A stretch of DNA of 64,000 bases, taken from Geosiphon pyriformis uo1 (lineage: Eukaryota; Fungi; Glomeromycota). How positions within the stretch are numbered: position 1 is the stretch's first letter; each line of letters opens with the position of its first letter. A model generated the notes under the pieces. That model was not told where the DNA came from, did no database searches, and was given only the letters and a program-made list of their open reading frames with translations. The stretch is taken from positions 805,574 to 869,573 of the forward strand of contig JAAOMT010000183.1 of NCBI GenBank assembly GCA_016748015.1, given 5' to 3'. Below are positions 3,118 to 55,972 of the stretch, one piece after another. The position numbers were made by a program, and so were the translations under genes.

Positions 3118-4035
3118 TATTATAGATAATTATTTAGAATATTAAAACAAATAACAAATCTGTAATTTGGTGCTTAATAATTAAAAATGTTAGTAATTCT
3201 AAAGATTTTAATGTCTAAAGGTTTTGGTTAAGTTCTTTGTATAAAGAACAGAAATTTAATTAATGATTGCTTTTGTGAATTTTTTTTTTTAGTGTAATGG
3301 CCAATTTATTTTGGCAGTTATGCTCTTCTGGTAAATTATTTTTAAATTTTTATCTTTATTCTTGGATTTTTATCAAATTATCTTTAATATCAACTATTTA
3401 GTACTTAATCTCTTTAATTAATTAGCAAATAACAATAAATAAAATAAAAAAATAAAATAAAATAAAATAAAAAATAAAAAATTAGTATTCTGTTAATAAG
3501 CATAATCAAAAACTATTGGTTTAATGTAATTAAGTATTAAATTCTATCAACATAAAGTGTTAATAGTGAATAAGTAATTAATATTCTTAATTAAGTAACA
3601 ATAACATAAATTAAATAACAATTAGATATTTTTATTAATATAAATATGTTTTTGCTTTAAATTATAGAAAACTATCTTTTGAAAAAAGAGTATTGGAATT
3701 TTAAACTCTATTAAATTCTGAATCAATTCTGTTTTTTTTGTTTTTAATACTCTTAATATATATATATAATTCTTGTTATATAAAATCTCATATTTTTTTG
3801 AATAATATGTACTATTTTTTTTGATAATGTGCTTATTGCTAAACAATATGCCATGATTTCTAACAATGTGCTTATTGCTAAGCAATATGCCATAATTTAC
3901 TGACAATATGCTTATTGCTAAACAATATATTATAATTTTCTAACATTGTGCTTACTTGCTAAGTTTTATTCTTCAATTGGTCTATTTTTTTATCTGTTTT
4001 TTTTACTTTTTTTTTGTACTTTTTTATAAATAACA
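3118..4035 (-). repeat. 3' LTR of element A, with ~39-bp tandem repeats at ~3820-3960
   Basis: Colinear with the three pieces of the 5' LTR; ends ...taaca followed by the PPT complement ttattttctccttc. Confidence 0.9.
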
Positions 4036-7000
4036 TTATTTTCTCCTTCAATATTGAGCTTTATTGAAATCTTTATTTTGAATTAAGTCTATTATTTTTT
4101 TTTTAATACTATTTGTTTAATTTTGTTTCTTATTTTTTTACATTGAGAGTTGTTTACTTTTTTCTACTGGTTAATAGTTTTTATTTTTATTTTTTAGTAT
4201 AGTAGTATTTTTAGATAATTTTAAAATATGGTATGTAGTTAGTAAATTGTTTTAATATATAGTATAAAATTTGTCTTCTTTCTAATAAAATTTTCAATTT
4301 GTTGTACTATTTTTTGATTGAATATTTTTTTAAATTTATCAATATATAATTCTTAGATATTTAGCTTTTGTTCTAATTAATAATAACAGTATAATATTAG
4401 AAGTTGTTTTATTTATAGCTTCCAGTTTTTTTTAATTGGCTCTTTTATTGAGATTATTATTAGTATTTTCTCAAAAGTATTCTTTACTTTTTCTATAACT
4501 TTATCTGATAAGTACTTTGTTTAGTTTTGTAGAATAATTTTTGCTTTTTTTTTTTGGTGTTTCAATAACAAATTGTTTGGTAATTAATGATAATTTCATG
4601 TCTAATTGTTGTTAATTTATGGTCTGAAATAATTGTTAAGCCATCATGTAAATGTGGTCTAGAATTTCTATCTTTTTATTATTGCTTTTATTATGTAAAC
4701 TGTGTCTTTATATACTATTTTTGTAAATCAATTTGATGTGTTTGTGTTAATAATTATAATTGGTTTTAGATCTTATGGAATTTTATCTGGTTGAACTAGT
4801 ATTTATTGTATTCCTAGTTGTAGAATATTACTGGTAGATGATAATACTATATTATAATATGGTTTTAGTCAATTCTTATATGCTGCTTTAGCTAAGATAT
4901 TATTGTTCTATCTTAATTTATAAGTTTTATTTCCTAGAATTTTTTCAATATAAAATGGTTTATTCTATTTGGAATCAAATTTTCCACTCCATACAAGAGT
5001 ATTTTGTCTTTAATTTTAAATTCAACTGGTTTATTTGGTAATTGATTATTATGTCATTTTTTTTGTTTTGCTTGTGATTTTTATATATTATTAGCTGCTA
5101 TTTATCTTTTGTTTTCTAATATTTTTATTAAATTATATGTTTTTTTTAGCAATATTTTTTGAAAGTTGGCTTTTGTTATTGGTTCTATTGGATATGTATT
5201 GATATCTATCTTAGCTGATAATATTGCTATTTTATTATATACAAGTTCAAATAGTATTACTTATGTAGTATTTTGCTTTATTGTTTGATAAACAAATAAT
5301 ACTGATAGTATAAATAAATCCTATTTGTCCTGATTTTTTTGGCTAATTTTGGCTATTGCTTTACACTGTTACAGATAAACTTAGTAAAGTAAGAAAATAG
5401 TAATGTTTAATGCTTTCAATTATCAATAATGTATACATTTGCTTTTTAAATTGCTTTTGTTTTTGGCCATTTTGTAAAATAGTCTATGGCTACTGCTATA
5501 TATCAATTGTTTTTGCTGATTATTGTTAGTAGTCTTACTAAGTTAATTTCAATTTAATTAAATAATTATTCTACTTTGATTGGTCTTAGTGGTTCACTGG
5601 ATTTTGTTCCTCTTTTTCTTTAATAAGCATCACAATTTTGAACATATTAGATAATATTTAAATATATAAATGACCAATAGTATTATTTTTTGGTTCTTTC
5701 TATGGTTGCTTTTTTATAAAAATGTTCTGCTATTAGATCTGAATACATATTAAACAATATTGTTTTTTTTTCTGGTTTTGTAATTACTCTAATTGGCTAA
5801 TCTGGATCTTTTTTGTTTTTCTAATATAGTATATTTTGATAAATAATAAAGTATTTTAATTGTTGTTTTATGTTGTTTTATTTTTTTTAATTTTTTTTTA
5901 AATTATTAAGTATTGATATAATATTAAAGTTGTTAATATTTTTGTGCATTTATTTTTTGTTATATTTTTGGGTTGAAATGTTTTTAAATTTGTTTTATTC
6001 ACAATAAACTATTGGTATTTTTGTTTTTTTTTCCCTTTTTATAATGTACTATATAATTAAATAATGATAATTCTATTTTTTATCTTATATAGTGATCATT
6101 TTCAAATTCCTGCTTTTGAATTGATGTTAATTTTTTGTGATTAGTATACAAATCAAACTTTTAACTAAAGTATTTTTTCCATTTGATGACAACTCAATAA
6201 ATAGTTAAGTGTTTTAATACTAGAGTTCTATAGTTTTTCTTGGCTGGACTTAAACTTTGGTTGACATATGCTATTGGATGTTCTTATTTATCTGTTTTTT
6301 TTGTAACAATACAGCTTCCAATGCTTGACTAAATGCATTAGTGGTAATGATAAATGACTTGTTATAATCTAAATAGATTATTATTAAAGCTTAAATAAGC
6401 TTTCTTCTTAAAATATTAAAAGCTTTTTGTTGAGTTTCAGTCCATTTATATTTAATATTTTTTGTTTATAGCTGGTAGAATAGTTAAGTCAGTTTGGAAA
6501 AGTTTTGGATAAAGTGGCAATAATATTTAGCAAATTCCAAAAATGCTCTTAATTCTATTAAGTTTGTTAATATTAGAAAGTTTTTAACTATTTTAATTTT
6601 GTCTGGATCTGTTTTAATACTGTTTTTGCTTATAACATGTTTTAAAAACTTTAATTTTGTTTTGTTAAAGAAGCATTTGATTGCATTCAACTTTAATTTG
6701 ACTCTTTTTAATTTTTTAAACATTTGTTAGAAATAATAGAAATGGTCATTGAATGTTTTAGAAAACACATTGGTATTGTTTAAGTAGACTATTACTGATT
6801 TTTATAGTAATTTAGTATATACAATTTCTATAAGCCATTGAAAGATAACTGAAGCATTAGTTATAAAAAACATAATATTAAATTTGAAATTCTCTTCTCT
6901 GATTGTAAATACTATCTTTTTTTTGTTAGCTGAATTCATAACTACTTGTCAATAACTACTATCTAAGTCTAATGTTAAGAATCATTTCTTTTTTCTAAAA

Positions 7001-10000: not shown

Positions 10001-12944
10001 TATTGCTGATCTCCAATTCTGTTGCATATAAGTAATTCTTGGCTTTTGGTTGCTAGTTAACATTTGAACTAAGTTTTGGAACAGTATTTAAATTAGTTGT
10101 AATTGATAGATAATTTATGGCTGTAGTTAATAAATAACTAATACTAGAGTTTAATATATTGGAGGTAAGTATATGAGTTGTTACATTATTGAAATGTAAT
10201 AAGATTGATATTGTTCCTGATTTTGGGTTTGATTTGGAGTTTAAAACTGGTGATTGGAGTTTTAATATTGATTTTTTGATCATTGATTATTTAATTTTAA
10301 ATGACAATTGAATTTTAAGTGTCTTTGTTTATTACAATAGTGGCAGATACACATTTTTTACTATTATGATTGATTGGTTAATAAAAATAATAGGTGTAAT
10401 TGATTTTGAAAATGATTGGAGTTTTTTTAATTGTTATAATATTGTGGAAATTAATAGATTGTTTAATTGTTAATTAAATATCTCTAATTTTTTGATTAAT
10501 GGCTTTGCCAAATTGTTTTAATTTGGTATCCAATTTAAATAATTTGTTTATTAATAAGTTTACAGCTTAGGTGTAATTGGCTTTAAGTTCAGCTAATTTA
10601 AAATCTTGAATATGTGTAACTGTGTTTTGAAAAGTATTTGGGTATATTAGACATACTCATTGTAACAAACTACTGTATAATCCATAAATAAATTGGTTTA
10701 AAATCTGTGCTGCTGTAAAGTAGTTAGCTTAAATTGTCTAAATTTGGCATAGATTTCTATAAAAATGTTCTAAGTAAATAGTAACTGTTTTAGTATTAAC
10801 TTGTTTAATTGTGATAAAACTAGTTAACAATTGATTGATACTGTTGTAATTATTAAAATATTGTAAAAACATGGTTTTAAATGTGTTAAAAGTTTGTGGC
10901 TTGTTAATGAAATTTTAATACCACAAGTTGGTAGTATTCTATAAAAAATAAGAAATGGCTTGAAAAGCTTTGGCATTGTCTCAATTATTGGCTATAATTG
11001 TCTTAACTATGTCATTCAATTATGTTTAGGCATTGTTTTTTTTACTGGTAAATTTTTCAAGTTTGACAATAAGTGTATATGCTATTGGTGCTAGTTGTTG
11101 TTGTTGCAATTGTTGTTAAGATTGTTGTTGAAGCTGTTGTTATAATAAAGCAATTAGTACAATTGGTGAATTAATCATAATTACTAGAGATAAATTTTGC
11201 TAAATAATAGAAATGGAATTTAAATTGTTCTGATTTTGTAAAGTTTGAACAATCAGAGTTTGTATTTCTGGATTATTTGAAATTGGATTTTAATTATTAT
11301 TTCTCTGATTGCTGTTGTCTTTTTTTTCTAATTCAGTATCTTTTTAATAACTAGTAGATTTAAAATTTGGTTGAAGTAACAGTTATCAAAGTTTAATGAC
11401 ATTGTTGGTCGCAATTTAAATTCTTTAAAGTAATTGTCATATGTTCCTAATAGTTTGGTTTTCTCTTAATAATTTTGGAATAGTACTCTAAGTAATGATG
11501 TTTTTGCAATTGATAGTAATATGAATCTGAATAGTATATATATAGTACTTTCTGGTATATGATGGTATGATAAGTAAATAGATAAAATAATTTTAGATTT
11601 CTTCCAATTAGGTAGTTGTATTTTTCTTGATGTTTTTGCTGGAGTTTGTAATTATTTTTTGTCTGTAAAGATAATAGAAAATTTTTATTAAATGTAATTT
11701 TCAATTTTTTTGTTTATTTTTATAATTAATAGTATAAACAAATAGTTTGGTAAAAGTATAGTGCTTTGAAATAATTTACTATAAAAATTGTTGAAAGTGG
11801 TTTTTGAATCTTTTTGGTCTTTCAAATAGGATTTAATTTTTTTTTAACATAGTAATTGAAAGCTAATTTTGCTGGTTAATGATTATTTATCAGTCCAAAA
11901 TAGATTTGATAATATTGAAATAAATATTTCACAAATTCTAAATAATTTTCTCTTATGATTTCTTGTTTTGTCACTTTTCTGAATAGTTGATATTGGTGCT
12001 GGTTCTCTGTTGGATTATATCTCACAAGGAGCACCAAATATTACAGGTAATTATTTAGGATGTTAGAACAAATAACAAATCTGTAACTTGGTGCTCAATA
12101 GTTGAAAATATTGGTAATTTTGAAGGTTTTGGAGTTTGAAGGTTTTGGTTAAGTTTTTTGTATAATAGACAAAGATTTAATTAATGGTTGCTTCCATGAA
12201 TTTTTTTTTTCAATGTAATAGCCAGTTTATTTTAGCAATTGTGCCTTTCTGATAAGTTATCCTTAAATTTTTACTCTTATTTTCAGGTTTTTTATCAGAC
12301 TATTTTTGATGTTAACTATTTAATACTTAATTCTTTTAATCAATTAGCAAATAACAAAGAATGAAACAAAAAAAAAAAAATAAAATAAAAAATAAAATAA
12401 GAAATTAATATTCTGTTAATAGTTATAATCAAGAGTTATTGGTTCAGTATAATTAATTATTGAATTCTATTAATATGGAGTGTTGATAGTAGGTAAGTGA
12501 TTAATATTCTTAATCAAGTAATAATAATATGAATTAGATAATAATTGAATATTTTTATTAATATAAATGTTGTTACCGGAGGTTTTTGATCTCTTTTCTT
12601 GAATGTTGTTGATGTCTGTTTGCTGTGAATTCACGTTTTCTGGATGTAGTTGAACCTCCAGTAACTGAATTTATCTTCAAATTATCTCCTATAATTTGAA
12701 CTGCTGGGCTTATAAGTGGAATGGCCAATTCCTTACCAGTTACTTTATGTAGTTATGTTGTAGTAAACGTCAACTCTTTTCCAGGAATTGCTCGTCTAGA
12801 AGCTCACTAAAATGTATAGTTACTTTGCTGTGAAAGTCAACTCTTCTACAGGAATCTCGTCTGTAGGCTACCTTAATGATTGTAATAAGAAAAGAAAAGG
12901 AAAATAAAAGAAATGTAAAAGAAATAGAATTTTTGTCAAGAGAA

Positions 12945-12964
12945 NNNNNNNNNNNNNNNNNNNN
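12945..12964. other. Assembly gap inside the B 3' LTR
   Basis: 20 N. Comparison with the 5' LTR (21426-21842) implies roughly 417 bp are missing. Confidence 0.95.
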
Positions 12965-13121
12965 CATGATTAATTATCACAATTAGGTTACATTTGTGTT
13001 GTGTACAATTTGGGTTATTAATTAAATGATAATTTCGAACATTCTTTGCTAATGTAATAAGTGATAATTTGAAATGATAATATATGCTAATTAATGATAG
13101 GAATTATGAGATAGTTTCATG

Positions 13122-13841
13122 CTAAATGATATCTCTAATTTTGTCTGGTAACATAACCTCTTCCTCAAGACTGAGCTCCATCGAAGTCCAAGTACTGTCT
13201 GTTATTTCCAAATAATAATCCAAAATTATTGAAGAAATTTGGTCTGAAAATTGTTGAAATTTCAGTTCTGTGAGCTTTCCAATGTATTGAATCTTCAAAG
13301 GTTGAAAAATTGGGTTTTGTAGTACATTTTCACAGGTGTAGAATAGGTCATAAAGTCTAAGAGCAGCTCTAAGCCTATAGCGACTGTTTGTTGATCCAGC
13401 TGTTGTCTTGAATTTGTTGTGGGGTTGTTTCTGAATAGCTTCTTTTGTGAGATTTGCTGTTGTAAGTTCCAGTTTCCGTTCATAGAGTGTTTTTCCAATG
13501 TGAAAATATCTATAGATTGGAGAATATTTAGTGTTTTCCTCATTAAGACACAGTTGAAGTTTTTGTTGACTTGTAGCATTTGGTGGGATACTAATCAGAG
13601 TGAGCATTAGGTTTTCTCTTAAAGCAAGCTTTAAAAGTTCTGGCAGGTGAATTTCAGTATAACTTCTTGTGTTCTTTTTATACAGATGATATTTTCGTGA
13701 ATTTGGAGCTAAATTTGTAACTACTTCTGTTTGGGTATAATTTATGTGGTTTCCAGTAATAGTAATGGATAATTTGGGTATTGTTTTTAAAGCTAACATT
13801 AGTTTTTGGGATAATTGTTGAATGTTTTGAGGAATAGTCAT
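13122..13841 (-). CDS. Element B ORF3, unknown function (~239 aa), runs through the PPT into the 3' LTR
   Basis: Uninterrupted ORF from ATG 13841 (MTIPQNIQQLSQ...). Homologous decayed ORFs occupy the same position in A, C and D. Confidence 0.85.
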   Translation of the reverse strand: MTIPQNIQQLSQKLMLALKTIPKLSITITGNHINYTQTEVVTNLAPNSRKYHLYKKNTRSYTEIHLPELLKLALRENLMLTLISIPPNATSQQKLQLCLNEENTKYSPIYRYFHIGKTLYERKLELTTANLTKEAIQKQPHNKFKTTAGSTNSRYRLRAALRLYDLFYTCENVLQNPIFQPLKIQYIGKLTELKFQQFSDQISSIILDYYLEITDSTWTSMELSLEEEVMLPDKIRDII

Positions 13842-13956
13842 TATAAGCACTTGAAAAAAATAAAAATTTATTTTTGGTTTATGGGTTTTTATGTTATTTT
13901 TGTTTTGTTTTTGTGAGATTGTTCTAAATTATAAGAGAATAACTAGTAAAATTAAA

Positions 13957-15342
13957 TTAAGTGTTCAGGTTGGAAGGTTGTTTAATGACAACTATTGGTT
14001 CTAAGTTTCGGGGAATATCTTTGGGACTGATTAAAGGGGAATGTGTACCAATTTGTGGAATTAATGGTTCAGGATTGTTTCTGGAATAATAGTGTTTCAA
14101 ACGATCTCCATGTGCAACTTTTGCTAGGATTTTGTTATCAAGTCTTAGCTTGTATGATCCATTGCTTAGAACTTCATGAATAAAAAATGGTCCATCCCAT
14201 TTATTTTCAAATTTTCCACTCCATTGTTTTTCAGCTTTAGTTCTGTGTAAGAAAACTTTGTTTCCAATTTTGAATTTATTGGTGACTGAAGGCAATTTGT
14301 CATCATGCCGTTCTTTTTGTTGAGCTTGGGAGTGTTCAATATGGGTGGCTGCTATTTGTCGTTTTCTTTCCAATGTGCTAAGCAGAGTATAGGCTCTTTG
14401 CTGAAGCGTTTCTTGGAAATTGTTTTCATCAATCGGTTGTGTTGGGTATGTTTCCACTGTGAAACTAATTGGTAATGTTGCCGTCCTTCCATAAGTTAAA
14501 TCAAATGGTGTGTGTTTTGTGGTATCTTGTTTTAATGTCCTATATGCTAGTAACACTGATGGAATAAAGAGATCCCATTCTTGCCCAAAATCGGTTAAGA
14601 CTTTGGCTAATGACTCACATAATATTCTGTTAAAACGTTCCACAAGTTTGTTTGTTTGTGGATGGTAGGGCAAAGACAGAGGTTTTTTGACACTGAATCG
14701 TTCACAAATTTTTTGTATCAGGTTGTTCACAAAGTGTGTTCCCTGATCAAATAAAAGTTTAATTGGACATCCATGTCTACAAATGATGTTTTCGTAGATG
14801 AAATTTGCTACTGATTTTGCATCTGCTTGTTGAATGGCTCTGGCTTTAGGCCATTTAGTAAGATAGTCTACAGCTACTGCAATATAATGGTTTCCTTGAG
14901 TGGTAATAGATAGTGGTCTGACTAAATTGATACCAACTCTGTCAAAAGGCTGTCCAACTTTGATTGGGTTTAAAGGTTTTGTAGGGCGAGTTCCTCCTCT
15001 TCTTTGACAACTATCACAAGATTTGACATATTCGTGAATGTCTTTTCTCATTCGAGGCCAAAAGTAGTATTCTAGTGTTCTTTGGGTGGTGCTATCTTTT
15101 CCGAAGTGTGCTGATGAAGGATTAGAGTGCATATTGTATAAAATGGTTTCTTTTTCCTGTTTTTGTATTAATCTGAATGGTTTGGTTGGGTTTTTGAAAT
15201 TTTGATGATAGATAATGTTGTTGTGTAGAAAATATTGTTTGGCTTGTTGTTGTAACCGATGTTTTTTGTCTGGGGACCAATCTGTTGAGATTGTTAATGT
15301 CTCCAAATATTGTTTGAGATTGTTGTAGTTTTTGGGGTTCAT
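13957..15342 (-). CDS. Element B integrase (stand-alone ORF, 461 aa)
   Basis: HHCC zinc domain (MHSNPSSAHFG...CDSC), core (VGINLV [D>N], DQGTHF, VERFNR) and GPY/F module (WDGPF). No chromodomain seen. Has its own ATG. Confidence 0.95.
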   Translation of the reverse strand: MNPKNYNNLKQYLETLTISTDWSPDKKHRLQQQAKQYFLHNNIIYHQNFKNPTKPFRLIQKQEKETILYNMHSNPSSAHFGKDSTTQRTLEYYFWPRMRKDIHEYVKSCDSCQRRGGTRPTKPLNPIKVGQPFDRVGINLVRPLSITTQGNHYIAVAVDYLTKWPKARAIQQADAKSVANFIYENIICRHGCPIKLLFDQGTHFVNNLIQKICERFSVKKPLSLPYHPQTNKLVERFNRILCESLAKVLTDFGQEWDLFIPSVLLAYRTLKQDTTKHTPFDLTYGRTATLPISFTVETYPTQPIDENNFQETLQQRAYTLLSTLERKRQIAATHIEHSQAQQKERHDDKLPSVTNKFKIGNKVFLHRTKAEKQWSGKFENKWDGPFFIHEVLSNGSYKLRLDNKILAKVAHGDRLKHYYSRNNPEPLIPQIGTHSPLISPKDIPRNLEPIVVIKQPSNLNT

Positions 15343-15391: not shown

Positions 15392-18300
15392 CTAATCTTG
15401 CCTCATCCTTGAGAGACAATCAACGTTGGTGTGGAGTTTTCCTAGTTTGTGGTGTACGATGTATTGGTAATTAGCTAAAAATCCTGTCCATTGGGTTTGT
15501 TTTGCGTTCAGCTGGGTGTTTTTGTTTTGAAGCCATTTAAGTTCAATATTATCAGTGATAATATCGAATTTTTTGGGTCTGAGGTAAAGGTTGAAGTGAT
15601 GTAGGGCCCAGATTACTGCTGCAGTTTCTAATTCTGTTGTGGGGTAGTTCTTTTTGGCTGGCTTTAATGTTCTACTAGCATAAGCAATTACTCACTCATT
15701 TCCATTGTCATCTAACTGTGATAGGATGGCACCAAAGGCAGTATAAGAGGCGTCAATTGCTAACTGGAATTGGTTGCTGAAATCTGGGTAGGTGAGGATT
15801 GGAGCTGTTGTGAGTTTTTCCTTAAGTATCTCGAAGACATTTTGGTGTTCTTCTGTCTATTTGTATTCAACATTTTTAGTAGTGAGCTGGTTGAGAGGTT
15901 TTGCAATTTCTGAGAATCCTTTGATGAATTTTTGGTAATAAAATACTAATCCAATAAATCCTCTTAATTCTGTGGTATTTTGTGGAGTCTTGAAGTTCTT
16001 GACAGTACTGATTTTTTCGGGGTCTGGTTTAATTTTATCTTTGCTAACAATGTGACCAAGAAAAGCTAAACTTGTTTTTCCAAAGTAGCATTTTTTAATG
16101 TTCAGTTTCAATCCTGCTTTCCATAATCGTTGAAAAACTTCTCACAGGTGGATTAAATGTAGCTTGAAAGATGGTGAATAAACATCAGTGTCATCGAGAT
16201 AAACTACTACTGATTTCCAAAGGAGGCCTTTATAAACAACATCCATGAGTCTTTGGAATGTTGCTGGTGCATTGCATAATCCAAAAGGCATTATATTGAA
16301 CTCGTAATTTCCTCCTTGAGTGGTGAATGCTGTTTTGGGGCAGTCTTTGGGATCCATAGCAACTTGCCAGTATTCACTCTCTAAATCTAATGTTGAAAAG
16401 TATTTGGACTTTCCAAGGACATCCAACATTTCATCAATTTGGAGAAAAGAGTAGGCATCCCCAATGGTGACACTGTTGAGTTGTCGGTAATCAACACAAA
16501 ATCATATCTTTCCATTTTTTTTTTTAACTAGGACCACAGGTGAGGCCCATAGGTTCATTGATGGTTGAATAAGCCTATTGTTAAGCATTCATTGTACTTC
16601 TTCTCGGATAAATTGGTGACTTTCTGGGGCAACTCGGTAGGCTTGTTGTCGCCTTGGTTTGGCATCTCCTGTATAGATTTGGTGTTGAACCAAATCAGTT
16701 CTTCCTAAGTCATTGTTGTTTTCGGCAAAGATGTCAGCAAATTCTGCAATTAGCTCTTTGAGCTGGGTCTGTTGTTGTGGTTCAAGTTGTCCCATGTTGA
16801 TTCAAGATAGTTTTTCCATGACAACATAGTAGTTTTTGGAGCTGGGGTTTGAGTTGGTTTTTGGTATTGAATGTCCAATAATTTCAGTGAAATCGGGAAC
16901 TATTTGGGGTAATTCTTGTTGAAATATATTACTGTGAATAACTCCAATTTCTAAATTATTTAATAAAATTATAAGGTAATTATTGGGGTTGTAAAAAGTA
17001 ACTCAGACTTTCTTTGTTCCTTCTGAAATATAAATGTTTGGGATCAAAATATTATGTTCCAAGCAGACTTGTTCATTGGACTCAAAAATTTGTTGTGTGG
17101 TTGTTGACTTTGGGCAGGTGTAGATTTCCGGATGTTCTTCAAAGGGTGAGATAGTAATTGGTTGTGAAAGTTTGAGAATCTGATGGGATTTGTTCTGTAT
17201 GTTAAGAGCTATATTAACTGGAACTATGAATTGTCCAGTTGAACCAAAACCTTGGGTTTTTTTATCACTTTTTCCTAATTGTTTTCTTTGATTGACTAGT
17301 TGCAAACCCGAAATGTTGATTAAGAGTAGGTAAATAGCTTGGGCAATTTTTTCAGCATGTTTGATCTTGAATGGTTTGTCAGTTTCATTTTGAAGCATCA
17401 CTGTTATGTCTCCAGTATATCCAGCATCGATTATTCCTCCTCTGACATTGATTTTTTTGCTTGCCAGAGAGGACTGGGAGGCGATTTGAACCATTGCTCC
17501 TGGCGAGATTTCGAGTACAATTTTGAAGTTGATTTTTGTGAGAGATTTGGGTTTGAGAACAAGAGTATCCTTGCCTGGATATCTTAGGTCATATCCAGCA
17601 TCAATTTCGTGTGCTTTTTCAGGTTTTATTCCTTGTCCGTTGTTGTTGAAGTATTTAAGTTGTAAGGCAGGCTGATTTTTGATAAGGTAGATGGGTGTTG
17701 TTTCAATTTCTTCTGTTTCTTCAGGTTCTCCGAATTCAATTTCATTCTCATCATTTTCGCTGGGCAAGGGGATACTAAAAGCATAGCATTCAAAACACCA
17801 TTGTTCATCACAAGGCATAATGCATTCTTTACATAGCCTAATGTTCATTTGCTCTAATCGTTGAATTTGAGCTTCTTGGGTCGAGTAGGTGTAACTTGCA
17901 ATTTGGTAGTAGACTTTTATTTCATCTTCGTAATTGAATTCAGCTAATTCCATAGTGTATTCAATGTATTCTGCTTCCTTTATTTGATGAACATCTCCTT
18001 TGGTAGCTCCATTAATTAATGCCATTGCTAAGTCAAAAATCATCTCGGCATCATGAGAGTAGTGATAAAGTTTGTTAAAAGCACTATTGTATGCTGCATT
18101 AAAGGGTGTTCCTTTTTTTACTTTTTCTGAAATTAATAAAGCATATTGGCAGGTCTGATTGCAGACACCTCCTCTCATTGCTATATTAATCCAATTGCAT
18201 TTTTCTGGTAGCATCTCTCCATAAGTCAAACAAGGGGTGTTGTCCCATTTTCCACTTCTTTTTATTAGATGGCCTCATCGCTCTCTGGCAAGCCTTGCAG

Positions 18301-21005
18301 TAATAACAAGTATGATTCTCATATTCTTCTTCAGGCAAAATGCAGGCTCCCATTGATGATAGTTTTTTGTAACAGTCCTTACATTTAAGGGGGATATAGG
18401 GGCGTTGTTTCCTTGGTTCGGGTTTTGAGTAAAGTATATTCCATCTAGAGGTTTCGGGTTTAGTGTGTGGGGTGAAATGTTCTTGTTCTGTTTTATCAGC
18501 CCAGTTGGACGTTGATCCAAGAGCTATGAATGTTTCAATTATTGGTTTTTCTTCTTCCGGTTCAAATTCAAAAGCTGGGGCTTTTTCAGAGTGTTTGTTG
18601 AATGTACCACAAATGGCAGATACTTGGGTGTGTTGTTCTTGGTAGGAGATTGTTAACTCTTGTGTTTCCCAATTCAGATTAGCATTGGCTTCTTGAAGCC
18701 AATCATTTCTGACGAGAGCTTGATACTGGGGTGCATCCATTACAAGAACTTTAACTGGAATGGTGATTCCATTAAGAGTGAATGGAAAATTGTCAATTTT
18801 TCTTACTGGGGTCTTTTTCATGTCATCGGCAGTGACGATTACTGTTTAAGCTGGTCAGTTGACATTTCTTTTCAACTGTTGCATTAACTGGTAAGTAATA
18901 ATGCTTCCAGTGGATCCACTGTCTAGGATCAAGTGAATTGGCTTTCCTTTTACTTCAGCTTCTGTGTACATTACAGTGATGGCTTTTTGCTCATTAGCCG
19001 CTGCATTGCTAAGCAAAAATGGTGATTCATTTGCTTCAAATTCAAAAGGAAAAATATCAGAGAGATTGGCGTTTTCAGCAATTTGGACTGGTAGAATAGT
19101 GGTGTGGTTATGAGAAGGGTTTTGTTGTTGTTGTGCTGCAGCTCTACCTTCTGAGAGTGTAGTATGGTGAAAATCCTGTTCTTCCACCATTGTTAAATAA
19201 CTGGGTTGAGTGTGGTAATGGTTGGGTCTTGTTTGAGTGGTATTTTGGGAAACTAATTGGTTGTTCGAACTGATTCTACTGTTGTTTACTTGGTATTGGT
19301 TTTGTGGTATAAATTGATTTTGTGTAATCAGTCTTTGAGCAGGTACTTGATAATGTTGGGTGGGTGGTTATTGGTATTGCTGTTGGATTGGTTGTGGGGC
19401 AGGCTGATAATAGTTATTTTGGTATTGGGGTCTTGGTAGATAGTAAGCTGGTGGTGATGGTTGATAATAAGATTGCTGTAGTGGAGAGTAATGTTGATTA
19501 TCCCTATTTTGTTGGTCTCGTTGCAGCTTTCTGCAATCTCTTTTTCAGTGGCCAGAGATTCCACAGTAATGGCAATTCTGAGGCTGGTTGTTGGAAAGTG
19601 GTGCAAAGTTATTTTGATTTCGTCTTTGGGGTGGTTGATATCTTTGGGATTGTTGTTGTTGTTGGTTGGTAAAATAGTTTTCGACCTTCTTTGTGAGTTG
19701 GTCAATTTTTTCCTCAGCTGCTGAGCTGGTTTCTCCAATTGCCAAATTTACAAGTTTTGTACGATTGGCTTCTTCCATGGCCATTTCGTATCTTTTCGCA
19801 TGCTGTATGACAGAGTTTAAATCTTCTGGTGTGTGTGGGCGAATCTTTTTAATTAGTTTATTTTTTAGACCAACGATAAATTGATCCAAGATTTGAGCAT
19901 CAGAATAATAATTGTTTGTCTCAAGTTGGCAAATCCGTTTGAAAAGTTTGTTGAATTTTCCAATATAAGTCATAACGGATTCGGAGGGTTCTTGTTTGAT
20001 ATTTCGAAAATGATTGCGAAGAGTGATAGAGGTATTATTGTTGGTGAACTGTTCAAGGAAGGCTGCTTTGAAAGCATTCCAATCATTGAATGGGGCGGCA
20101 AGGTTTTCAAACCATTCTCCTGCTGTTCCTTTGAGAAAGTAGGGAATTGTTCTTAACATTCTGGCAGCGTTCCATCCATTTGCATCTCCAGCTTTAGTAA
20201 CTTGATCAAGTTATTCTTGGGGACTGGTCTCAATATCTTCTTCATTGAATTCAGGGATTTTTGTGATGTATGTTGTCATTTCATTTTCTTCGTTTTTACT
20301 GTCTATTGATTCTTCTTCGGTTATTTCAGAGTTGTTTTCTTCATTTGCTGCTGTCTCAGAGTGTTCACTTTGATTTTCAGCTAGAAAATCAAGGAGATTG
20401 AAACTAGTTTGAAGGGGTTCTTGTTGTTTGGTGGAACTTCTAAGTGATGTAAAATCTTCTGGTCTTGCAAATCGATTCAAGAATGAATTAGGTGTTTGTG
20501 CTTATGCAAGCGAAGCTGGAAAAAGTGTGATAGTAAGTGGAAGTTTTGAACTGGTTCTTTGTTCAGGTGTTTGTAAATGTCTGGCAGTTGTTTTCGGTAG
20601 TGTTGGAGTATTTGGGGTGGTTTTTGAATATTGCTTTAATTTGTTTTTGTTGTTTGTTTCTGTTTCCGATTCAAAATCAATAGTGTATTGAGACTGCACT
20701 GGATATGTTTCTTTACAGTATTTGATAATGTTAAAATTAAGTTTGTGAAAGTAAGTGGCAAGTGTTTCACTATTAAGGTCTTCAGTTCCCAACTGTGAAT
20801 AGTGTACTAAATTATTGTAAAGATTGCTTCTAACTTCTGAAATATTGTAATTTCCAAAAAGATAATTGTTGATGCGGTTTTCAATGTATTGGTATACTGA
20901 TTTCTTGACAATTTCAATTCCGTCTGGAATGTTGAATCTTTGCTTGCAGTGGGTGTAAATTGATTGGTAATACTCTAGAGTTGTTGCGTCTGGTGTGGTC
21001 ACCAC
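15392..21005 (-). pseudogene. Element B Gag-PR-Cys-rich-dUTPase-RT-RNaseH polyprotein (nonsense-disrupted)
   Basis: Capsid (19545-20159), CHYCGISGH knuckle, LILDSGS protease, dUTPase motifs, RT YLDD (16142-16429), RNase H ending NVDCLSRMRQD* at 15392-15394. Same frame from 21005 to ~18230, then one frameshift. Confidence 0.95.
17230..17640 (-). CDS. dUTPase domain within element B pol
   Basis: All five dUTPase motifs: AGYDL, (R)SSLA, GIIDAGYTG, EKIAQ, GFGSTG. Confidence 0.95.
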
Positions 21006-22259
21006 TTTGAATTTGTTTTTGCTATGTTATTTCCATGGGAGAGCACCAAATGTTACCGGAGGTTTTTGGTCTCTTTTCTGTAATGTTGTTGATACTTATT
21101 TGCTGTGAATTTACGTTTTCCGGATGTGGTTGAACCTCCAGTAACTGAATTTATTTTCAAATTATCTCCTATAATTTGAACTTGCTGGACTTATGAGTGG
21201 AATGGCCAATTCCATGCCAGTTACTTTATGTAGTTATATTGTAGTAAACGTCAACTCTTTCCCAGGAATTGCTTGTCTGGAAGCTTACTAAAATATATAG
21301 TTACTTTGCTGTGAAAGTCAACTCTTCTACAGGAATCTCGTCTGTAGGCTACCTTAATGATTGTAATAAGAAAAGAAAAGGAAAATAAAAGAAATGTAAA
21401 AGAAATAGAATTTTTGTCAAGAGAAACATTTTCTATCCAGGCCTGGAGTTACTAACAGTTTACTGAAATTGGTAGCTAATCAATTTCAAAACGTTAGTTG
21501 GGTTTTGGGAATTTTCCAAGTGCAATAATTAAAGAATTTGGTTTTTCAAATTATTTGATATTTATTTTTTTTTGTGTGTATAGGAATGGTTCTAAGTGAT
21601 AAATCTAAAGTAAGATACATTTTCTCGAAGAGAGAAGCTCTTCTTTTATACAACTTGTCGTAACACTATTCTATGAACTTGAACTTTGCTATTTTCTACA
21701 ATTTCGCTGAACTAAAGATACATTTCGGCAAACTACAAGTTATTTCTGCAAACTATTAGATATTTTGGTGAACTATCAATTATTTCAGCGAATTTCTATA
21801 AATTTTGGCGAACTTTTGAATGTTATATAGTTCGGGATATTGCATGATTAATCATCGCAATTAGGTTACATTTGTGTTGTGTACAATTTGGGTTATTAAT
21901 TAAATGATAATTTCAGACATTCTTTGCTAATGTAATAAGTGATAATTTGAAATGATAATATATGCTAATTAATGATAGGAATTATGAGATAGTTTTATGC
22001 TAAATGATATCTCTAATTTCGTCTGGTAACAATGTGTTTCCACTTTAAGTTATAGAAAACTATCTTTTAAAAGGAGAGTATTGGGGTTCTGAACTCTATT
22101 AAATTCTAAATCAATTCTGTCTTTTTTGTTTCTAATACTTTCACTATATATACATAATTCTTGTTATACAAGATCTTGTATTTTCTTGAGCAATATGTCT
22201 TATTTTTTCTGATAATGTGCTTATTACTAAGCAATATGCTATAATTTTTGACAATATGC

Positions 22260-25200
22260 TGTTACAAATGATTATTTGGAGTCTCAAATCAAATAACAAA
22301 CTTGTAATTTGGTGCTCAATAGCGATATTAATGGTGGTGGTAATCTGAAAGTTTTGGTTGAGTTTTTTGTATAAGAAACAAAGATTCAATAATTGTTTTC
22401 AGTAGTCTCTTGGAATCGCAATTCTATCAATTTTTTTCTCGGCTTGGTGGCCAGCAATCCTCTAATAAGTAATTCATAATTCTTTATGTGTTTTACTTAC
22501 TCACAGAGATCTTTTACCAGGCAATCCTTAACATCAATAATTCAGTGCTTAATCTTTAATTAAGTTAGTAACAACAAAAGAAATAACAAAATAGAAAATA
22601 AAAGAAACAAAAAAAATAAAGAATAAGCCAAGACAATTTTTCTTACAAGTTAGTATTCCATCAATAGCTGTGATCAAGAGCTATTGTTTTAGTGTGGTTA
22701 AGTATGAATTACTATCAACATGAAGTGTTGATAGTGGAAAATGAATCAAGATAGTGAATAATTATTTATTGATATTTGTAATATAGAAGATTGCTTAGAT
22801 TAAATCTAAACTGAGAGGTCTGTTTTTTCTATTTCTAACACTACCACTATATATACATAATTGAAATTCCTCAATTCCTCAATTTTTCACACCAGGAATC
22901 CTGGAATTTCTGGAATCCTGCAATTTCTTTTGAGAAGAATTCTGTGATTCCTTGTATGAGAATCCTGAAATTCTTAGAATTCTGCAATTCCTCTTGAAAG
23001 AAATCTGGAATTCCATATTTATTATGGCTACTTCTGATTGGCTAATTATATATGCTAATATATTTCCTATATTTTATGAGTAATATTATTCTTTCTTTTT
23101 TTAATATTGAGCTCTATCGAGATCTCCCAAATCTCCTAACTCTAATTCTCCATCCTTGAGTATTTCTTGAACTTTTTTTTCAAGAATTACTTGAGTTATC
23201 TTGTTTTGTAACTCTTTAAATTGGGTGTTAGTTATTTTTTCCATTTGGTTAACTGTAATAGAGTTTATTTCTGAATTAAGTAAGATTTCTGGTCTGTCTT
23301 GAAATTCAGTATATAGCTAATAGATGGCTCTTGCTTGTGTAGTTAAATTGTTCTTTTCCACAAATTGTTCCAGTTGTTGTAGTATTGTTGTGTCAAATAA
23401 TCATTTTTTTTTATCTGTGTATAAGTTTTGAATGTTCAAGTGTCATCCCAAGTGAAAATAACAAAAGTTCTTTGAAAATTTGTGTATTCACTATTTCCAA
23501 GTTTTTTTGGTCAACTCTTAATATGTGCTGATATTTGTTGGTTTTTCCATTGCTAATTTTATTTTCAGAACCATTTTGTCAATAGTGTTTTCTGTTTTTT
23601 TTTGACTTTTGTATTTGGGTATTTTTCTGGTATTTCAGTATCAAATGGTTTGTTGATTGATAGTAATTTCTATATTCTGTTGTTGAATTAGTTGAAAGAA
23701 TTGTTGTGTTAGTGAGTGGATATTGTCAGTAATTTCCATTTTTCTAAAGTCTTTTGTCACATCTATTATGTTTTTGTATACATTTTTTATTGTTCAACTT
23801 TATGTATTTGGTCCAATGATTATAATTGGTTCCAGATCTCGTAGAATCTCATCTGGTTGGACTAGTATTCTCTGTACTCTTAATTGTGGAATATTACTGG
23901 TAGATGGTGACACTATATGATGATATGGTTTTAGTCGATTACTATGTGCTGCTTTGGCTAAGCTTTTATTGTTCCATCTTAATTTATAAGCTCTATTTCC
24001 AAGAATTTCTTCTATGTGAAATGGTTTGTCTTATTTGAAGTCAAATTTTTTATTTCATTGTTTTTTTGCTTTGGTACAATATAAAAGTACTTTGTCTTCA
24101 ATCCTGAATTCAACTGGTTTATCTAATAGTTGGTTATCATGTCTTTTTTTTTGTTTTTTTTGTAACTTTTGGATGTTATCAGCTGCTCTTTGCCATTTGT
24201 TTTCTAGTGTCTTCATTAAGTTATACGTTTTTTTCAACAATGTCTTTTGAAAATTCTCTTTGGTTATTGGTTCAGTTGGATATGTCTTGACTTCTATTTC
24301 AACTGGTAATGTTACTGTTCTACTATATACTAATTCAAATGGTGTTGCTTGTATAGTGTCTTGTTTCATTGTCTGATAAGCAAATAATACTGATGGTATG
24401 AACAAATCTCATTCATCCTGGTTTTTTTGGCTAATCTTAGCTATTGTTTCACACAGTGTTTTATTGAACCTTTCAACTAACTTATTGGTTTGTAAATGAT
24501 ATGGTGATGATAATGGTCTTTTAATTCCAAATCTTTGGCTTAATTCTGCTAATGTTCTATTTACAAAGTAAGTTCCTTGATCTAATAGTAGTTCTTTTGG
24601 ATATTCATGTTGACATATTAAATCTTAATGAACAAATTTGGCAACAGATTCTGCATCTGCTTTTTAAATGGCTTTTCCTTCTGGCCATTTAGTAAGATAG
24701 TTCATGGCTACTGCAATATATCTGTTGTCTCTACTGGTAATTGTTAATGGTCTGACTAGATCAATTCCAATTTGATCAAATAGTTGTCCCACTTTGATTG
24801 GTCTTAATGGTTTATTTGATTTTGCTCCTTCTCTTCTCTGACAAGCATTACAATTTTGAATATATTGAATAATGTCTGGATACATTGATGGCCAATAATA
24901 TCTTTTTCTGGTTCTTTCTATGGTTGTTTTTTTGTGAAAATGTTCTGCTGTTGGATCTAAATGCATGTTGAATAGTATTGTCTCTTTTTCTGGTTCTGTG
25001 ATTACTCTTGTTGGCTGGTCTGGATTTCTTCTGTTTTTTTGGTACAGTATATTTTGATGATTAATAAAATATTTTGATTGCTGTTTTATGTTGTTTTGTT
25101 TTTTTCAAGATAATTTCTTCTTGAACAATTGAGTATTTATATAATGTTAGAGTTGTTGGTATTTTTGGATATTTATTTTTTGTTATATTTTTGAGTTGAA

Positions 25201-31200: not shown

Positions 31201-32306
31201 TGTTGAAATAATTCTGTATAAAAGTTTTCTCTTACTGATTTGATGTTAACTGTTCTTCTTAAGCATTTTGTGGTTTTATTGTTGACATAAAAGTTGAAGA
31301 CTGATTTTATTGGGAAATGGTTATTGTTTAATTCTAATTGTTGACTGTACTGTTGAAACAAAAATTTGGCAAATCCTAAATGGTTTGCTTCTATGTTTTC
31401 TGGTTCTGCCACTTTTGGATAATTGCTGTTGGTACTAATTTTTTATAAGATTATATCTTACAGGGAGCACTAAATGTTACAAGTGATTATTTGGAGTCTT
31501 AAATCAAATAACAAATTCATAACTTGGTACTTAATAGCAATATTGATGGTGGTGGTAATCTGAAGGTTTTGGTTAAGTTTTTTGTATAAGGGACAGAGAT
31601 TCAATAGCTGTTTTTAGTAGCCTCTCGGAATCACAATTTCATCAATTCTTTTCTCAGCTTGGTGGCTGGCAATCCTCTGGTAAGTAATCTATAATTCTTT
31701 ACATGTTCTACCCACTGGCAGGGGTTTTTTACCAGGCAATTCTTGATGTCAATAATTCAGTACTTAATCTTTAATTAAGTTAGTAACAACAAAAGAAATA
31801 ACAAAATAGAAAATAAAAGAAACAAAGAAAATAAAGAATAAGTTAAGACAATTTTTTTTGCAAGTTAGTATCCCATCAATAGTCATAATCAAAAGCTATT
31901 GTTTCAGTGTGGTTAAGTATGAATTACTATCAACATAAAGTATTGATAGTGGAAATAGTGAATAATTATTTATTGATATTTGTAATATAGAAGATTGCTT
32001 AGATCAAATCTAAACTAAGAGGTCTGTTTTTTCTACTTCTAATACTATCACTATATATATATAATTGAAATTTCTCAATTCTTTGATTTTTTATACCAGG
32101 AATCCTGGAATTCTTAGAATCCTGCAATTTTTTTTGAGAAGAATTCTAGAATTCTAGAATTCTGCAATTCTTTGTATGAAAATCCTGAAATTTTTGTAAT
32201 TCTGCAATTTCTCTTGAAAAAAATCCTGAAATTCCACATTTACTACAGCTACTTCTGATTGGCTAATTATATATGCTAATATACTTTCTATATTTTATGA
32301 GTAACA
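22260..32306 (-). mobile_element. Ty3/gypsy LTR retrotransposon C
   Basis: LTRs 22260-23085 and 31475-32306. TSD ATGC at 22256-22259 and 32307-32310. PBS 31455-31472. Gag from 31412, PR (LILDSGS, ORF 28933-29310), dUTPase-RT (26209-27432), RT/RH to 25207, IN ~23787-25176, ORF3 from 23739. Confidence 0.96.
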
Positions 32307-49000: not shown

Positions 49001-50202
49001 AAATATCTAAAACTATATTCAAATCCAAATTTAACTTTAAAAAAACAGACACAGTAAAAAGAAAGAGTTAAAAAACAGTGTTACCTGAGTAGAAAAACCA
49101 ATCCAAAGTTATGAAGAAACGTGACATAACACAGAATAGTGCAATAATGTTGGATAATATATTATAATATAGAATAATGTGTTATAATGCAGGATAATAC
49201 AGAATAGTGCACAATAACGTAGGATAATGTGTTATAATGCAGAATAACACAAAATAACATGTAATAATGTCAGATAATGTGTTATAATATAGGATAACTA
49301 GCAATAATGTAGAAAAACAAAGCAATAACAGAAATAACAAAGCAATAGCTAGTGATAGCGAGACAATTAAAAGCAATCCTGTAAAACCAAAAAAATGTAT
49401 AAAAGCAAGTAGTTGTAGAAGTTAGAAAAGGCAAACAGACAGATAGATATGAACCTCTAAACAAGAATCAAATATCCATACCCCTTTATCATTTATTATC
49501 TTCCTTATTTCATTTTCTGAAATAAACCAATTATTAAAGAACTCAGAGTCACAAATTCATGTTCCTGAACTTCATAGAATTTATGTGAATTAACTTTTGT
49601 CTCATACCTTCGTTTTAGGACAGATGCTCTTAGCATAACCACCTTAAATAATCAACAATTTGGACCAATCGCTCTTGATCATGGCAATTGACGATACTAA
49701 TTTATCTTTTTTTTCTTTTTTTTTCTTTTTTTTTCTTTTTTTTTCTTATTTTTTTTGTGGAGTGGCAACATAGTAAAATTAACTGTCTGGGAATAGACTT
49801 CGTAATAGCCTGGTAAAAGAGGGAAGCTCCTCTTAAGTTTTGGATATTAACTTTATCTTGTTAGCTTACCAAAAAAGCGAAAAAACAACACCAAACCCTA
49901 ATGACTGCACTTGTTAGCTTGGAAAAGAAAGCTTACATTTACAGAAAACGTTGTAATCAATGAAAGACAAACTCTGTGCCTTATAACAAAAGAACTCAAT
50001 GGGTAAATTCACATCCAGAAATAGATCTTCAGAGACTGATAATCAAGATTAAGCCAACAGAATTACATAGAAGACACATCATCAATAATTGAAAGCACCA
50101 AACATTACTATTTCCCATACCCACCAAGTTTACTCATAACATTTGGTGCTCCCTGTGAGGTTATAAATCCACAGAGACAGAGCACCTCAGAGATACACAA
50201 AA

Positions 50203-53200
50203 GTGGCAACTATTGGAACAATAGGAAAGGACCACTCCTCATATAAAAGAGCATTATTTCAATACTTTTGAAAAGTTCTAGAAATACCAACAGAAACCAC
50301 CATTGTAGAAAGTGATTTTTGCAACTATATCAATGCAAAAATCAACTGTTTGTTAGGCCGCACAACTGATACAAGAAGACTTGAAAAACAAATCTATTAA
50401 AGCTTACTAAGGTACTCAACAACTACTACTACTCGAGTGATTGCTGAAACCCTACACATAGTCGATATAGATATTAAACACTATGTAACAAAATGATTCC
50501 CTTAAGTACAACAACCAGTAAAATCCAATTTGGAGAAATATGAGTATGGATCTAATAATCTTACAACTGTCCAAGACAAATCCACAGTCAACAAGAAACC
50601 AAGGATCCTCTTCCCAACAACTCCATCATACTATCAGACATCCCAAAGTAAAATTGTATTCAACTCACCCCCGGAAATCCAGTTGGAAACATCACAAACT
50701 CCTGTAAACTCATACTCTTGAAATCAACAAAGTTGGAACAAATTACTGGGAAAATACAGATTGCTGTTTAGAAATCTTACTCCAGCAGCCGGTCAACTAG
50801 AAGAAAACACGTCAACTTGGGAACAGCCACTAGCACAAAACCCAACAAAATCAGCATCTCTCCTTACGGAAGGAACAGCTATCCTACAACCTATTGGTTT
50901 AAGTGACAAAGGGAAACAACCAGCATTAGCACCCAGAAAACACTCGAATACATAGACACCAATCTTTTTAAACATAACCAGTAACATCCCACCCATTAAT
51001 TAGATCATGGCTTACTGGAATATTGCTAAATTGGAAAAATTCTCTGGTGAAGAAGATAACGCATATTCTTGAATTGCAGATGCCAAAAAAGCAATTACCA
51101 TTAATGGTTAGAATAACAACCACACAATTCAGGGACTGCTGTTCTTTTTGACTGGAACCGCCAATTCGTAGTACCAGAGTCTTGCAGAGAAGCCTACCTC
51201 TTTTACAGAGTTTAAACTCACATTTCTGCAATACTTTTGTGACCCTAATACACTTATCCAATTGCAAAATCAATTCAGTATAATAAAACAAAACAACCAT
51301 AAAGCAGTAATTACTTATCTTGGAAGATTCAATTAGGTCCTTTGACAAATCCTAGCCATCAATCAGAATTATTATACCACCATGCAAGTCCTCAATCAAT
51401 TTGTCAAAAGACTAAAAAACAGCCTCCTAAGATCCATACAACCTCACCATCTGGCAAATCTACAAGAAGCAGTTATTCTCACTCGTGATTTTGAGTTGGT
51501 TGAACAAGAAGTAAACCATATTCAAGCCATTAATTTAGCCATCAATAGAACCTCTGACATTAATGCAAAGATAACCCAATTAAGTGAGAAATTAACTCAA
51601 AAAATTGAGCCACCACAACAGAGAGAAAATAATAACAACAGCAAATACTCACAGCAACAGAACTATTAGCAACAGCAACAACCTTAAAGATCCAATTTCC
51701 ACAACTGTTACTACTGCCAAAAACCTAGACACATTGCCCGTGACTGCAGAAAGAAGATAATAGACCAAAATCAGAGGAACCAATACCAGTGACCCAGATA
51801 TTAGCAAAGTATGGTACCCCAATATTCCATACCTCAGAATCAACTGCCTCAATATACATAACAAGTTCTGTACACTCAACCACTGTCCCAGAATTATTAT
51901 CAACTACCACCAATGATACAAGCAATTCCTCACTATTAAACTTCCTCTTACAGCCCATCCAGACCTCGAGCCATAGACTATAATCAGGGATAGAGGAATT
52001 CCAACAACAATCAGGTGCAAACCAACAGTAGACTGTCTCAACCAATCTCTCATGGTCCTGCCCAATCTTGACCAACACCAACTGGATACCCAAATCAAGC
52101 TTCCTATCTCGGTCTTATGGAAGACCAGAGTTTTAACAAATCTACACCTGTGGAAGGGGAGAATGTAGAACAAATCTCTCAACCTTCTAAGCAAACAAAA
52201 AGCAATATTTTACCAGCCACTATTACCAAAGACACCACCCTAGTCATGATATTTCTTTTTAACATTGATAATTTGAACACCCATAGCCTTTTTAGTGGAG
52301 CAGCCATCAATCAGAATAAACTAATAACGGCCCTATACACCAATGCCAGAGTTGAAGGAATAGACATTAAATTAATCCTGAATAATGGATCAGCTGGTAA
52401 CATAATTACGAAGCAGCTTATGGACTAACTAGGTCGCCAAATAGACCATGCTGCTACTGTCTGGATCATCACAGTGAATGGAAACACAAAAACCCTGATA
52501 AGAAAAATTGACAACTTTTCTTTTGAGATTAATGGAATTTAGATCCCTACCAAAGTACTCGTTATGGAAGCTACTCAATATCAAGCTCTAATAGGAAATG
52601 ATTGGTTGTCAAAAGCCAATACTACTCTTGACTGGAACACTCAAGAACTTCAACTTATGTTCAATGAACAGTATGCCCGAGTCCCAGCTATGTGCGGATA
52701 TTTTAAAACCCAACATACCAAGGAACCCCTTATTGAATTCGAAGACACACCACTGCCACCAACCATTGAGACCTATCAGGTTTCATGAGTGGATGATTAT
52801 CAAATTAAACTACCCCCACCACCAACCTGGGAAGAAAAAGAAAAAGGCAGAGCTGAAGAAAAGCCCCAATTGTCATTAATAGGATACATAACTTTGGACC
52901 AAAGAAATCTATTTTACCAATCTCCAAAACTAATATGTGTTAATTGTGGAAAGAAGCTATCCACTATGGGCACATGTATCAGAAACAACAAAAAATGGCT
53001 TACTGTCATCAAACACTACTGCAGACCTTGTTTACTGGAAAGATTTAGACGACCAAAATGACAAGGCAAGTAAAACAACATGCCATGTCTCACATGTGGC
53101 GAGATCCTGCCCAATGAAGAACTTTGGAATGATGTGCCTGGTAGAAGAGAAACATGTGACAAGGCTTGTCAATACACCATATTAATCAATGATTAGATAT

Positions 53201-55962: not shown

Positions 55963-55972
55963 TTCCAGACTC

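Follow-up and report, generated by a model that had tools for sequence, protein, structure and literature searches.

In the 64,000-nucleotide stretch of Geosiphon pyriformis DNA analysed here (the window), a Ty3/gypsy element carries a third open reading frame (ORF3) in the env position, and the first-pass annotation had described its product as conserved, unlike Env, and presumably a selected accessory factor. This raises the question of whether ORF3 is a genuine gene of the element, what kind of protein it encodes, and what such a protein could do. The reading of ORF3 as a selected accessory factor other than Env is supported by the results presented below, and, as judged from sequence, ORF3 represents a genuine family of accessory proteins under selection, apparently one that has not been described before although its kind is known.

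The carrier element and its genomic setting

The window consists of AT-rich DNA that is dense in Ty3/gypsy elements surrounding a host-gene island at ~33-40 kb; LTR sequence is given as 41.2% of the genome of G. pyriformis, an early-branching glomeromycotan fungus, in an excerpt of the source (PMC11952901). Four full elements, A to D, were delineated (Table 1), of which A is older and holds both B (12571-22031) and C (22260-32304) in its 5′ LTR, the nested region covering 3117-32480. The CpG observed/expected ratio is 0.01-0.36 across the four elements versus 0.93 in the host-gene region, and because of this depletion the elements are probably methylation targets. Both TE methylation and small-RNA silencing exist in AM fungi, the methylation being described from Rhizophagus in the excerpted report (10.1101/2021.03.30.436303).

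Several further features were observed in the window. Two solo LTRs (40620-41489 and 45141-46053) are both of the C type, each with a 39-40-bp U3 array, and outside the recognised LTRs there are tandem repeats at 39006-39142 and 40130-40475 (periods 20/70 and 170) and an inverted pair (39007-39073 / 40482-40558). A host gene at 35165-36163 on the minus strand, located in the CpG-normal island between the TE clusters, encodes a SAD/SRA domain (E 2.4e-42) and is a possible methyl-DNA reader, and host gene pieces at 33282-34475 (plus strand) are putatively Vps23/TSG101-like (UEV, proline-rich, coiled coil).

ORF3 is carried by a dUTPase-bearing Ty3/gypsy LTR retrotransposon. The Ty3/gypsy domain order gag-PR-RT-RH-IN is present, as are paired TG..CA LTRs, a PBS, a PPT and a target-site duplication (TSD), which is 4 bp long in B, C and D. 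Elements A, B and D share the PBS core TGGTGCTC, from which C departs by one change. Pfam searching of the B integrase gave no chromodomain match. The dUTPase is flanked by Cys-rich segments between protease and RT (17003-18821 in B, with equivalents in C and D), and in both C and D a weak Pfam match to Spuma_A9PTase (E 0.0013 and 0.02) was seen ahead of RT. Element B is dead, with 13 stops in ~2360 gag-pol codons, and a 20-N assembly gap (12945-12964) in its 3′ LTR replaces ~0.4 kb relative to the 5′ LTR, the U3 array included.

Table 1 Coordinates of ORF3, its carrier element and the U3 arrays in the window.
Feature	Position	Strand	Remarks
ORF3 of B	13122..13841	-	ATG start, 239 aa; between integrase and 3′ LTR
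Decayed ORF3 of C	23104..23739	-	8 in-frame stops
Decayed ORF3 of D	57421..58152	+	5 stops; no start codon at aligned position
ORF3 remnant of A, heavily decayed	4041..4553	-	profile match
5′ LTR of B	21051..22031	-	981 bp, TG..CA; 94-97% identity with 3′ LTR
PBS of B	21037..21048	-	TGGTGCTCTCCC
Reading frame of gag (capsid, zinc knuckle) with protease	18186..21036	-	interrupted by 6 in-frame stops over 946 codons
dUTPase - RT - RNase H region	15398..18214	-	7 in-frame stops in 953 codons
Integrase, open frame	13957..15342	-	H2C2, rve, weak SH3-like C-terminus
Spacer, integrase stop to ORF3 ATG	13842..13956	-	115 nt, AT-rich
PPT GAGGAAGAGG, within ORF3 coding frame	13157..13166	-	
3′ LTR of B	12571..13153	-	flanking 4-bp TSD ACAT
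U3 array of B	21722..21814	-	period 20/40 bp; TATA box at 21650; candidate ORF3 target
U3 array of A	3826..3962	-	period 40, 3.4 copies; subunit ~19-20 bp
U3 array of C	32101..32234	-	period 41, 3.3 copies
U3 array of D	49126..49298	+	10-bp unit; periods 40 and 50
Element D	49079..59244		orientation opposite to A, B and C

ORF3 in the four elements

ORF3 of B is not a chance frame, since none of 2000 base shuffles kept at least 200 codons open. It starts 115 nt past the integrase stop (13957), and the frame continues across the PPT to extend 32 nt into U3. The annotation had called ORF3 intact in B, and the frame is indeed open, but this is weak evidence when taken alone: at the stop rate of the B gag-pol region, 239 codons stay open by chance with P ~0.27, and an open frame shows little because the element that bears it is dead. 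The reported overlap with PPT and U3 was confirmed in B, where the PPT is in frame, the 3′ LTR begins at 13153 and the last ten codons lie in U3. This overlap is lineage-specific: in C and D the stop codon comes immediately ahead of the PPT, and the nucleotide motif shared with B is read in a different frame. The C-terminus ELSLEEE(I/V)MLP is conserved in the B lineage because the PPT and the LTR end encode the peptide.

As proposed, decayed homologues were found after the integrase in each of A, C and D, so that ORF3 follows the integrase in four out of four full window elements, as it also does in a metagenome contig (L001). A profile built from B-type and metagenome proteins alone detected the copies of D (57790-58110, iE 6.8e-18) and C (23739-23170, iE 7.6e-15) and missed that of A, which was found at 4553-4041 (iE 2.7e-24) by a profile including C- and D-type rows. 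The four motifs said to be shared by the copies are visible in the alignments, the second reading YKIG in D; a degenerate motif pattern search of the window returned no matches. Protein-level homology between lineages spans ~210 residues even where their LTRs and spacers have diverged beyond alignment.

Homologues outside the window

Among 204 database matches to ORF3 of B, the 120 listed were all G. pyriformis ‘hypothetical proteins’, the best of them 92% identical, and the exact protein was absent from the collection searched. Searching representatives clustered at 50% gave 31 matches, including, outside Geosiphon, two full-length metagenome proteins (P0145 and P0148; 31-32% identity), and two further searches gave 315 and 114 matches. 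Classified by nearest type, the 279 collected proteins comprise 103 of type B (B1), 58 of a sister subfamily (B2), 102 C, 13 D and 3 from metagenomes. The ~270 retrieved G. pyriformis ‘hypothetical proteins’ are whole, truncated or chimeric gene models that include ORF3, a TE gene, rather than host orphan genes. In many annotated models, a fragment of ORF3 is fused to gag, to pol or to unrelated TE sequence; in P0279, for example, a 35-aa piece 97% identical to ORF3 of C is joined to a B-type gag.

A metagenome scan yielded three loci from 415 pattern matches: L001 with the layout RT-RH-IN-ORF3-PPT-LTR, L002 with the end of an integrase followed by an additional ORF and ORF3, and L003 with the end of ORF3 and a whole LTR. 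The extra ORF of L002 (398-811; 137 aa stop to stop), located between the integrase tail and ORF3, matched neither the ORF3 profile nor the window; its single weak similarity is to a segment of P0045 (36% over 55 aa). No relative was identified in viral contigs with the ORF3 alignment or with two integrase queries. In the ESM Atlas nothing usable was obtained for ORF3 of B; with P0148 as the query, the first match was a Mucoromycota cluster (0.94, 176/256 features) for which recognition fell short of the threshold and which may itself represent the ORF3 family.

Purifying selection and co-inheritance of ORF3

The ratio of non-synonymous to synonymous substitutions was determined for a single pair, B and a B2-type contig from sequencing run X2, over codons 153-217. 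The contig is assigned to B2 because 60 of its 65 residues match four B2 proteins, the corresponding figure being 49-51 for the lowest three B1 rows. No RNA data set was listed among the sequencing runs with ORF3 sequence, and the X2 contig served for the codon comparison alone. The 65 codons contain 22.5 synonymous and 12.5 non-synonymous differences, corresponding to a dN of 0.086, a dS of 1.02 and a dN/dS of 0.084, as computed from 35 listed differences of the 38 counted for X2. Third codon positions account for 23 of the 35 differences, and none of 5000 random placements was as synonymous as the observed set. Masking the sole CpG-type codon changed the ratio to 0.092, treating the three unlisted differences as non-synonymous raised it to 0.105-0.116, and the uncorrected pN/pS has a 95% interval of 0.07-0.29. 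The ratio, for which the annotation had named a value near 1 as the outcome that would speak against selection, is therefore 0.08-0.12 over 65 codons with CpG masking included, and ORF3 is conserved across copies and families by purifying selection.

Between lineages dS is saturated (pS 0.62-0.74), and for this reason the corresponding ratios are unusable as estimates. ORF3 identity is 22-37% between lineages, against 48-58% for the integrase, so that ORF3 diverges about twice as fast (dN 0.63-0.93 versus 0.30-0.44). The closest among six pairs are B-L001 and C-D for ORF3 and integrase alike, which fits the prediction of co-inheritance. In blastn comparisons of B with L001 and L003, the LTRs and spacers were unaligned except for the PPT junction.

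Composition and predicted structure of the ORF3 protein

Eleven ORF3 proteins of 200-244 aa, with 1-3 cysteines each, were examined for features of an envelope protein. In agreement with the annotation, neither a signal-like stretch nor a transmembrane segment was evident by hydropathy: the highest 19-residue Kyte-Doolittle mean is 1.01 in B and 0.27-1.29 in all 11 proteins, hydropathy revealed no hydrophobic N-terminal stretch in any of the 11, and the furin site R-x-[KR]-R is likewise missing from all 11. The description of the protein as basic applies to the B copy (pI 9.2) but not to the family, which ranges from pI 5.4 to 9.9 (7.0-8.9 in five other B-type, 5.4-5.9 in two metagenome and 9.3-9.9 in three C/D-type proteins).

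That the protein is helical agrees with the AlphaFold model, which predicts an all-helical core. Prediction improved from a pLDDT of 61 on 9 alignment rows to 72.7 (pTM 0.63) on 67 rows, with a confident helical core at residues 63-210 and a pLDDT of 81-94 over residues 71-210. An N-terminal helix and β-hairpin (residues 5-37), modelled as part of the longer chain, are of low confidence; residues 38-62 form a variable linker that is predicted to be disordered, and the acidic tail encoded by PPT/U3 is weakly modelled. Identity between B1 and B2 is highest in the core (0.85 over residues 153-217), against 0.73 over residues 1-37 and 0.32 for the linker. Residues G116, G149, N152, A159, R162, Y/H164, F167, L174 and G188-K189-x-T191 recur across lineages, and of these N152, R162, Y/H164 and G188-K189-x-T191 are polar or basic positions kept between lineages. 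The variants of R162, namely K, Q, W and stop, are the products expected of CpG decay.

No match to a known Env or an ordinary TE domain, the other outcome that could have overturned the annotation, was found. Pfam contained no family for ORF3 of B, and no DNA-binding motif was recognised; across 67 members no Pfam match was consistent, the best shared ones being Herpes_BLRF2 (8/67, E 0.13) and RGS (6/67, E 0.007). There was no consistent match to PHROGs among 18 proteins, the best E-values of sequence-profile searches against the PDB were 1 and 0.086, and Foldseek returned no match at E ≤0.001 in the PDB (both models) or the viral BFVD (better model). In a wide structural comparison the best Z-scores were 5.2 and 5.1, with none of at least 8. 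The top rows included the Orc6 C-terminus (Z 5.1, rmsd 5.7, 83 aligned), the CHD1 C-terminal domain (Z 5.0, rmsd 4.2, 81 aligned) and a sigma-F fragment (Z 4.5, rmsd 2.5, 56 of 57 aligned), all of which are nucleic-acid-binding helical domains; Z-scores of 4.5-5.1 fall under the noise level that the tool states for helical proteins. For a three-helix helix-turn-helix fold, the relevant rows were the sigma-F fragment and Spo0J (Z 3.7, rmsd 5.4, 95 aligned). Folds of the Env-fusion type gave single-helix overlaps only (residues 191-239, Z 4.0).

A candidate relationship to DUF1016_N (YhcG) was rejected, as hhalign gave a probability of 0.3% and E 0.21-0.22 when the family was set against an alignment of 21 rows taken from 50 loci, with the alignment register as expected and both profiles shallow (Neff ~3). 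ORF3 may also resemble a common helical orphan family of Glomeromycota.

U3 arrays and the region upstream of ORF3

A tandem array lies upstream of the U3 TATA box in the LTRs of A, B, C and D (Table 1) and in the two solo LTRs, where the periods are 40 and 39. Self-similarity of U3 was above 300 of 300 shuffles, which preserve base composition only, in all five LTRs tested, L003 included; four coding controls gave 43-44 matches per 100 in this test, and sequence of low complexity on the downstream side of the TATA box scored 54-60 in A, C and D. The array units are family-specific: the best 10-mer of D is present in 7 copies versus 0-2 elsewhere, that of A in 6 versus 0-3, and that of B in 5 versus 0-2. 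The B count, attained in 23 of 60 dinucleotide shuffles, does not exceed this background. Repeats are frequent in the U3 regions of LTRs and may bind host factors, and the common period of the arrays can also be accounted for by a shared ancestral array bound by such factors.

Upstream of ORF3, no promoter or splice acceptor common to the copies was found. The motif TATAWAWR occurs within 350 nt upstream in three out of six copies, B not among them, with a chance expectation of 0.15-0.65 each and with approximate starts for A and L002. The spacer of B contains no TATAWAWR and no strong splice acceptor.

Possible functions of ORF3

The function that we favour, tentatively and with somewhat less than even confidence, is that of a soluble nuclear regulator which binds the LTR of its own element, probably at the U3 array, and activates or maintains transcription against host methylation. 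The protein would be produced from a separate message and enter the nucleus, where its helical core would bind the family-specific U3 repeats of its own LTR, and this binding would activate the LTR or shield it from host methylation. The U3 arrays, together with a few conserved polar or basic residues, provide circumstantial evidence in favour of a nucleic-acid-binding transactivator or anti-silencing protein, as the annotation had suggested. We consider this reading to be weakened by the loss of the argument from a basic protein and by the lack of a significant fold match, and the fact that net charge is not conserved, two metagenome proteins being acidic, speaks against it.

Alternatively, ORF3 might act on the RNA or the particle of the element, in gRNA export of the Rev/CERV type, gag/pol frameshifting, packaging, or as a chaperone of reverse transcription or integration. 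A precedent within Ty3/gypsy is CERV of Cer1, which according to the excerpted report is required for gRNA export (PMC10309623); RNA binding would be just as compatible with the soluble helical core and its linker, which is variable and frequently basic, and ORF3 is co-inherited with pol. Nevertheless, neither an Arg-rich motif nor a splice signal is common to the copies and the U3 arrays are left unaccounted for, so that we rate such a role as rather unlikely, if worth keeping in mind. Somewhat less probable still is that ORF3 counters host defence through a host protein (RNAi, a methylation reader or a degradation adaptor) in the manner of Vif, Vpr or Nef and without binding nucleic acid. 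The twofold faster divergence relative to the integrase, the unconserved charge and the presence of TE methylation and small-RNA silencing in AM fungi (10.1101/2021.03.30.436303, in part) would all agree with an antagonist of this kind, but the core, at a ratio of ~0.1, bears no sign of positive selection, and its Asn, Arg, Lys and Thr positions are conserved.

An integration tether, acting in place of a chromodomain to steer insertions to LTRs or heterochromatin, could explain why the integrase has no chromodomain match and why B and C both landed in the 5′ LTR of A. Such nesting, however, is expected anyway in a genome with the LTR content cited above (PMC11952901, in part), and ORF3 is a separate frame that is not fused to the integrase, which makes a tether very unlikely. 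The env position and sense orientation might equally be those of a degenerate Env or of a protein for movement between nuclei or hyphae, and small ORF3s of rotifers have been proposed as env remnants in the excerpted account (PMC5408684); since 11 out of 11 proteins (200-244 aa, 1-3 cysteines) are devoid of a transmembrane segment, a signal-like stretch and a furin site, we give this possibility scarcely any credence. Finally, the frame might be a by-product of chance or of overlapping cis signals, and the peptide ELSLEEE(I/V)MLP can in fact be explained by the PPT and the LTR end, bases that are read in a different frame in C and D. A by-product would have to account for a dN/dS of ~0.1 in codons upstream of the PPT and for homology over ~210 residues in the face of LTRs and spacers that cannot be aligned; it is the least credible of these explanations, and the codon comparison already refutes it, provided that the pair compared is not an atypical one.

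Returning to ORF3 as a regulator of its own LTR, a wider version would hold that this fungal LTR clade has independently become similar to a ‘complex retrovirus’, with its own sequence-specific DNA-binding protein, of an undescribed helical fold, that recognises a phased 20/40-bp U3 array; protein and array would co-diverge by family, and the LTR would be activated or stay free of CpG methylation. We regard this version as unlikely on balance, though not far-fetched.

Comparison with known accessory proteins

Small regulatory genes at the 3′ end that adjoin or overlap U3 are known from foamy viruses (Tas/Bet), HTLV (Tax) and lentiviruses (Nef); Tax acts via U3 repeats and Tas binds its LTR. 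These genes differ from ORF3 in lying downstream of env, and no homology to ORF3 was detected. Within Ty3/gypsy, ORF3 resembles the aORF-3S (additional sense frames lying between pol and the 3′ LTR) of elements such as Athila and Bagy2 in position, sense orientation and presence in multiple families; as described in the excerpted source (PMC7264820), the plant frames are often env-like with transmembrane domains, whereas the fungal ORF3 has none and extends past the PPT into U3 in the B lineage. LTR elements of bdelloid rotifers likewise combine a dUTPase between protease and RT with a family-level ORF3, but, in the sections of PMC5408684 consulted, these ORF3s include GDSL and DEDDy enzymes and transmembrane or coiled-coil proteins, while the Geosiphon ORF3 matches no Pfam family or solved fold. 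Of the fungal Gypsy elements with a dUTPase, Tmt1 and PosPlaTy3 have it within pol, where one family places it between protease and RT (PMC2864245, in part); a figure legend in the same excerpt lists an ‘add. ORF’ of unknown function. Those elements were described from basidiomycetes and an ascomycete.

Two accessory proteins bear on function. VANC of the VANDAL DNA transposons is, like ORF3, a TE protein encoded beside family-specific non-coding tandem repeats in a methylated element; relative to the excerpted description of VANC (PMC5735166), ORF3 has no sequence match, belongs to a class I element, and has arrays that are confined to U3 and are candidate targets. CERV of the C. elegans element Cer1 is likewise a non-Env accessory protein of an LTR retrotransposon, but it is made from a spliced mRNA and exports gRNA (PMC10309623, in part), and for ORF3 neither a splice signal nor homology to CERV was detected. 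Accessory ORF3s after pol are thus a known kind in plants and rotifers, and this fungal family is apparently new: no description of it was found in the literature searched, although the G. pyriformis genome paper may mention it.

If ORF3 is a sequence-specific activator or anti-silencer, self-regulation of the VANC or Tax type would extend to fungal retrotransposons, and a new fold would be added. An old, selected accessory gene is also a candidate cause of the LTR burst in the G. pyriformis lineage, one that is directly testable by swaps because the diverged families each supply their own protein and U3 array.
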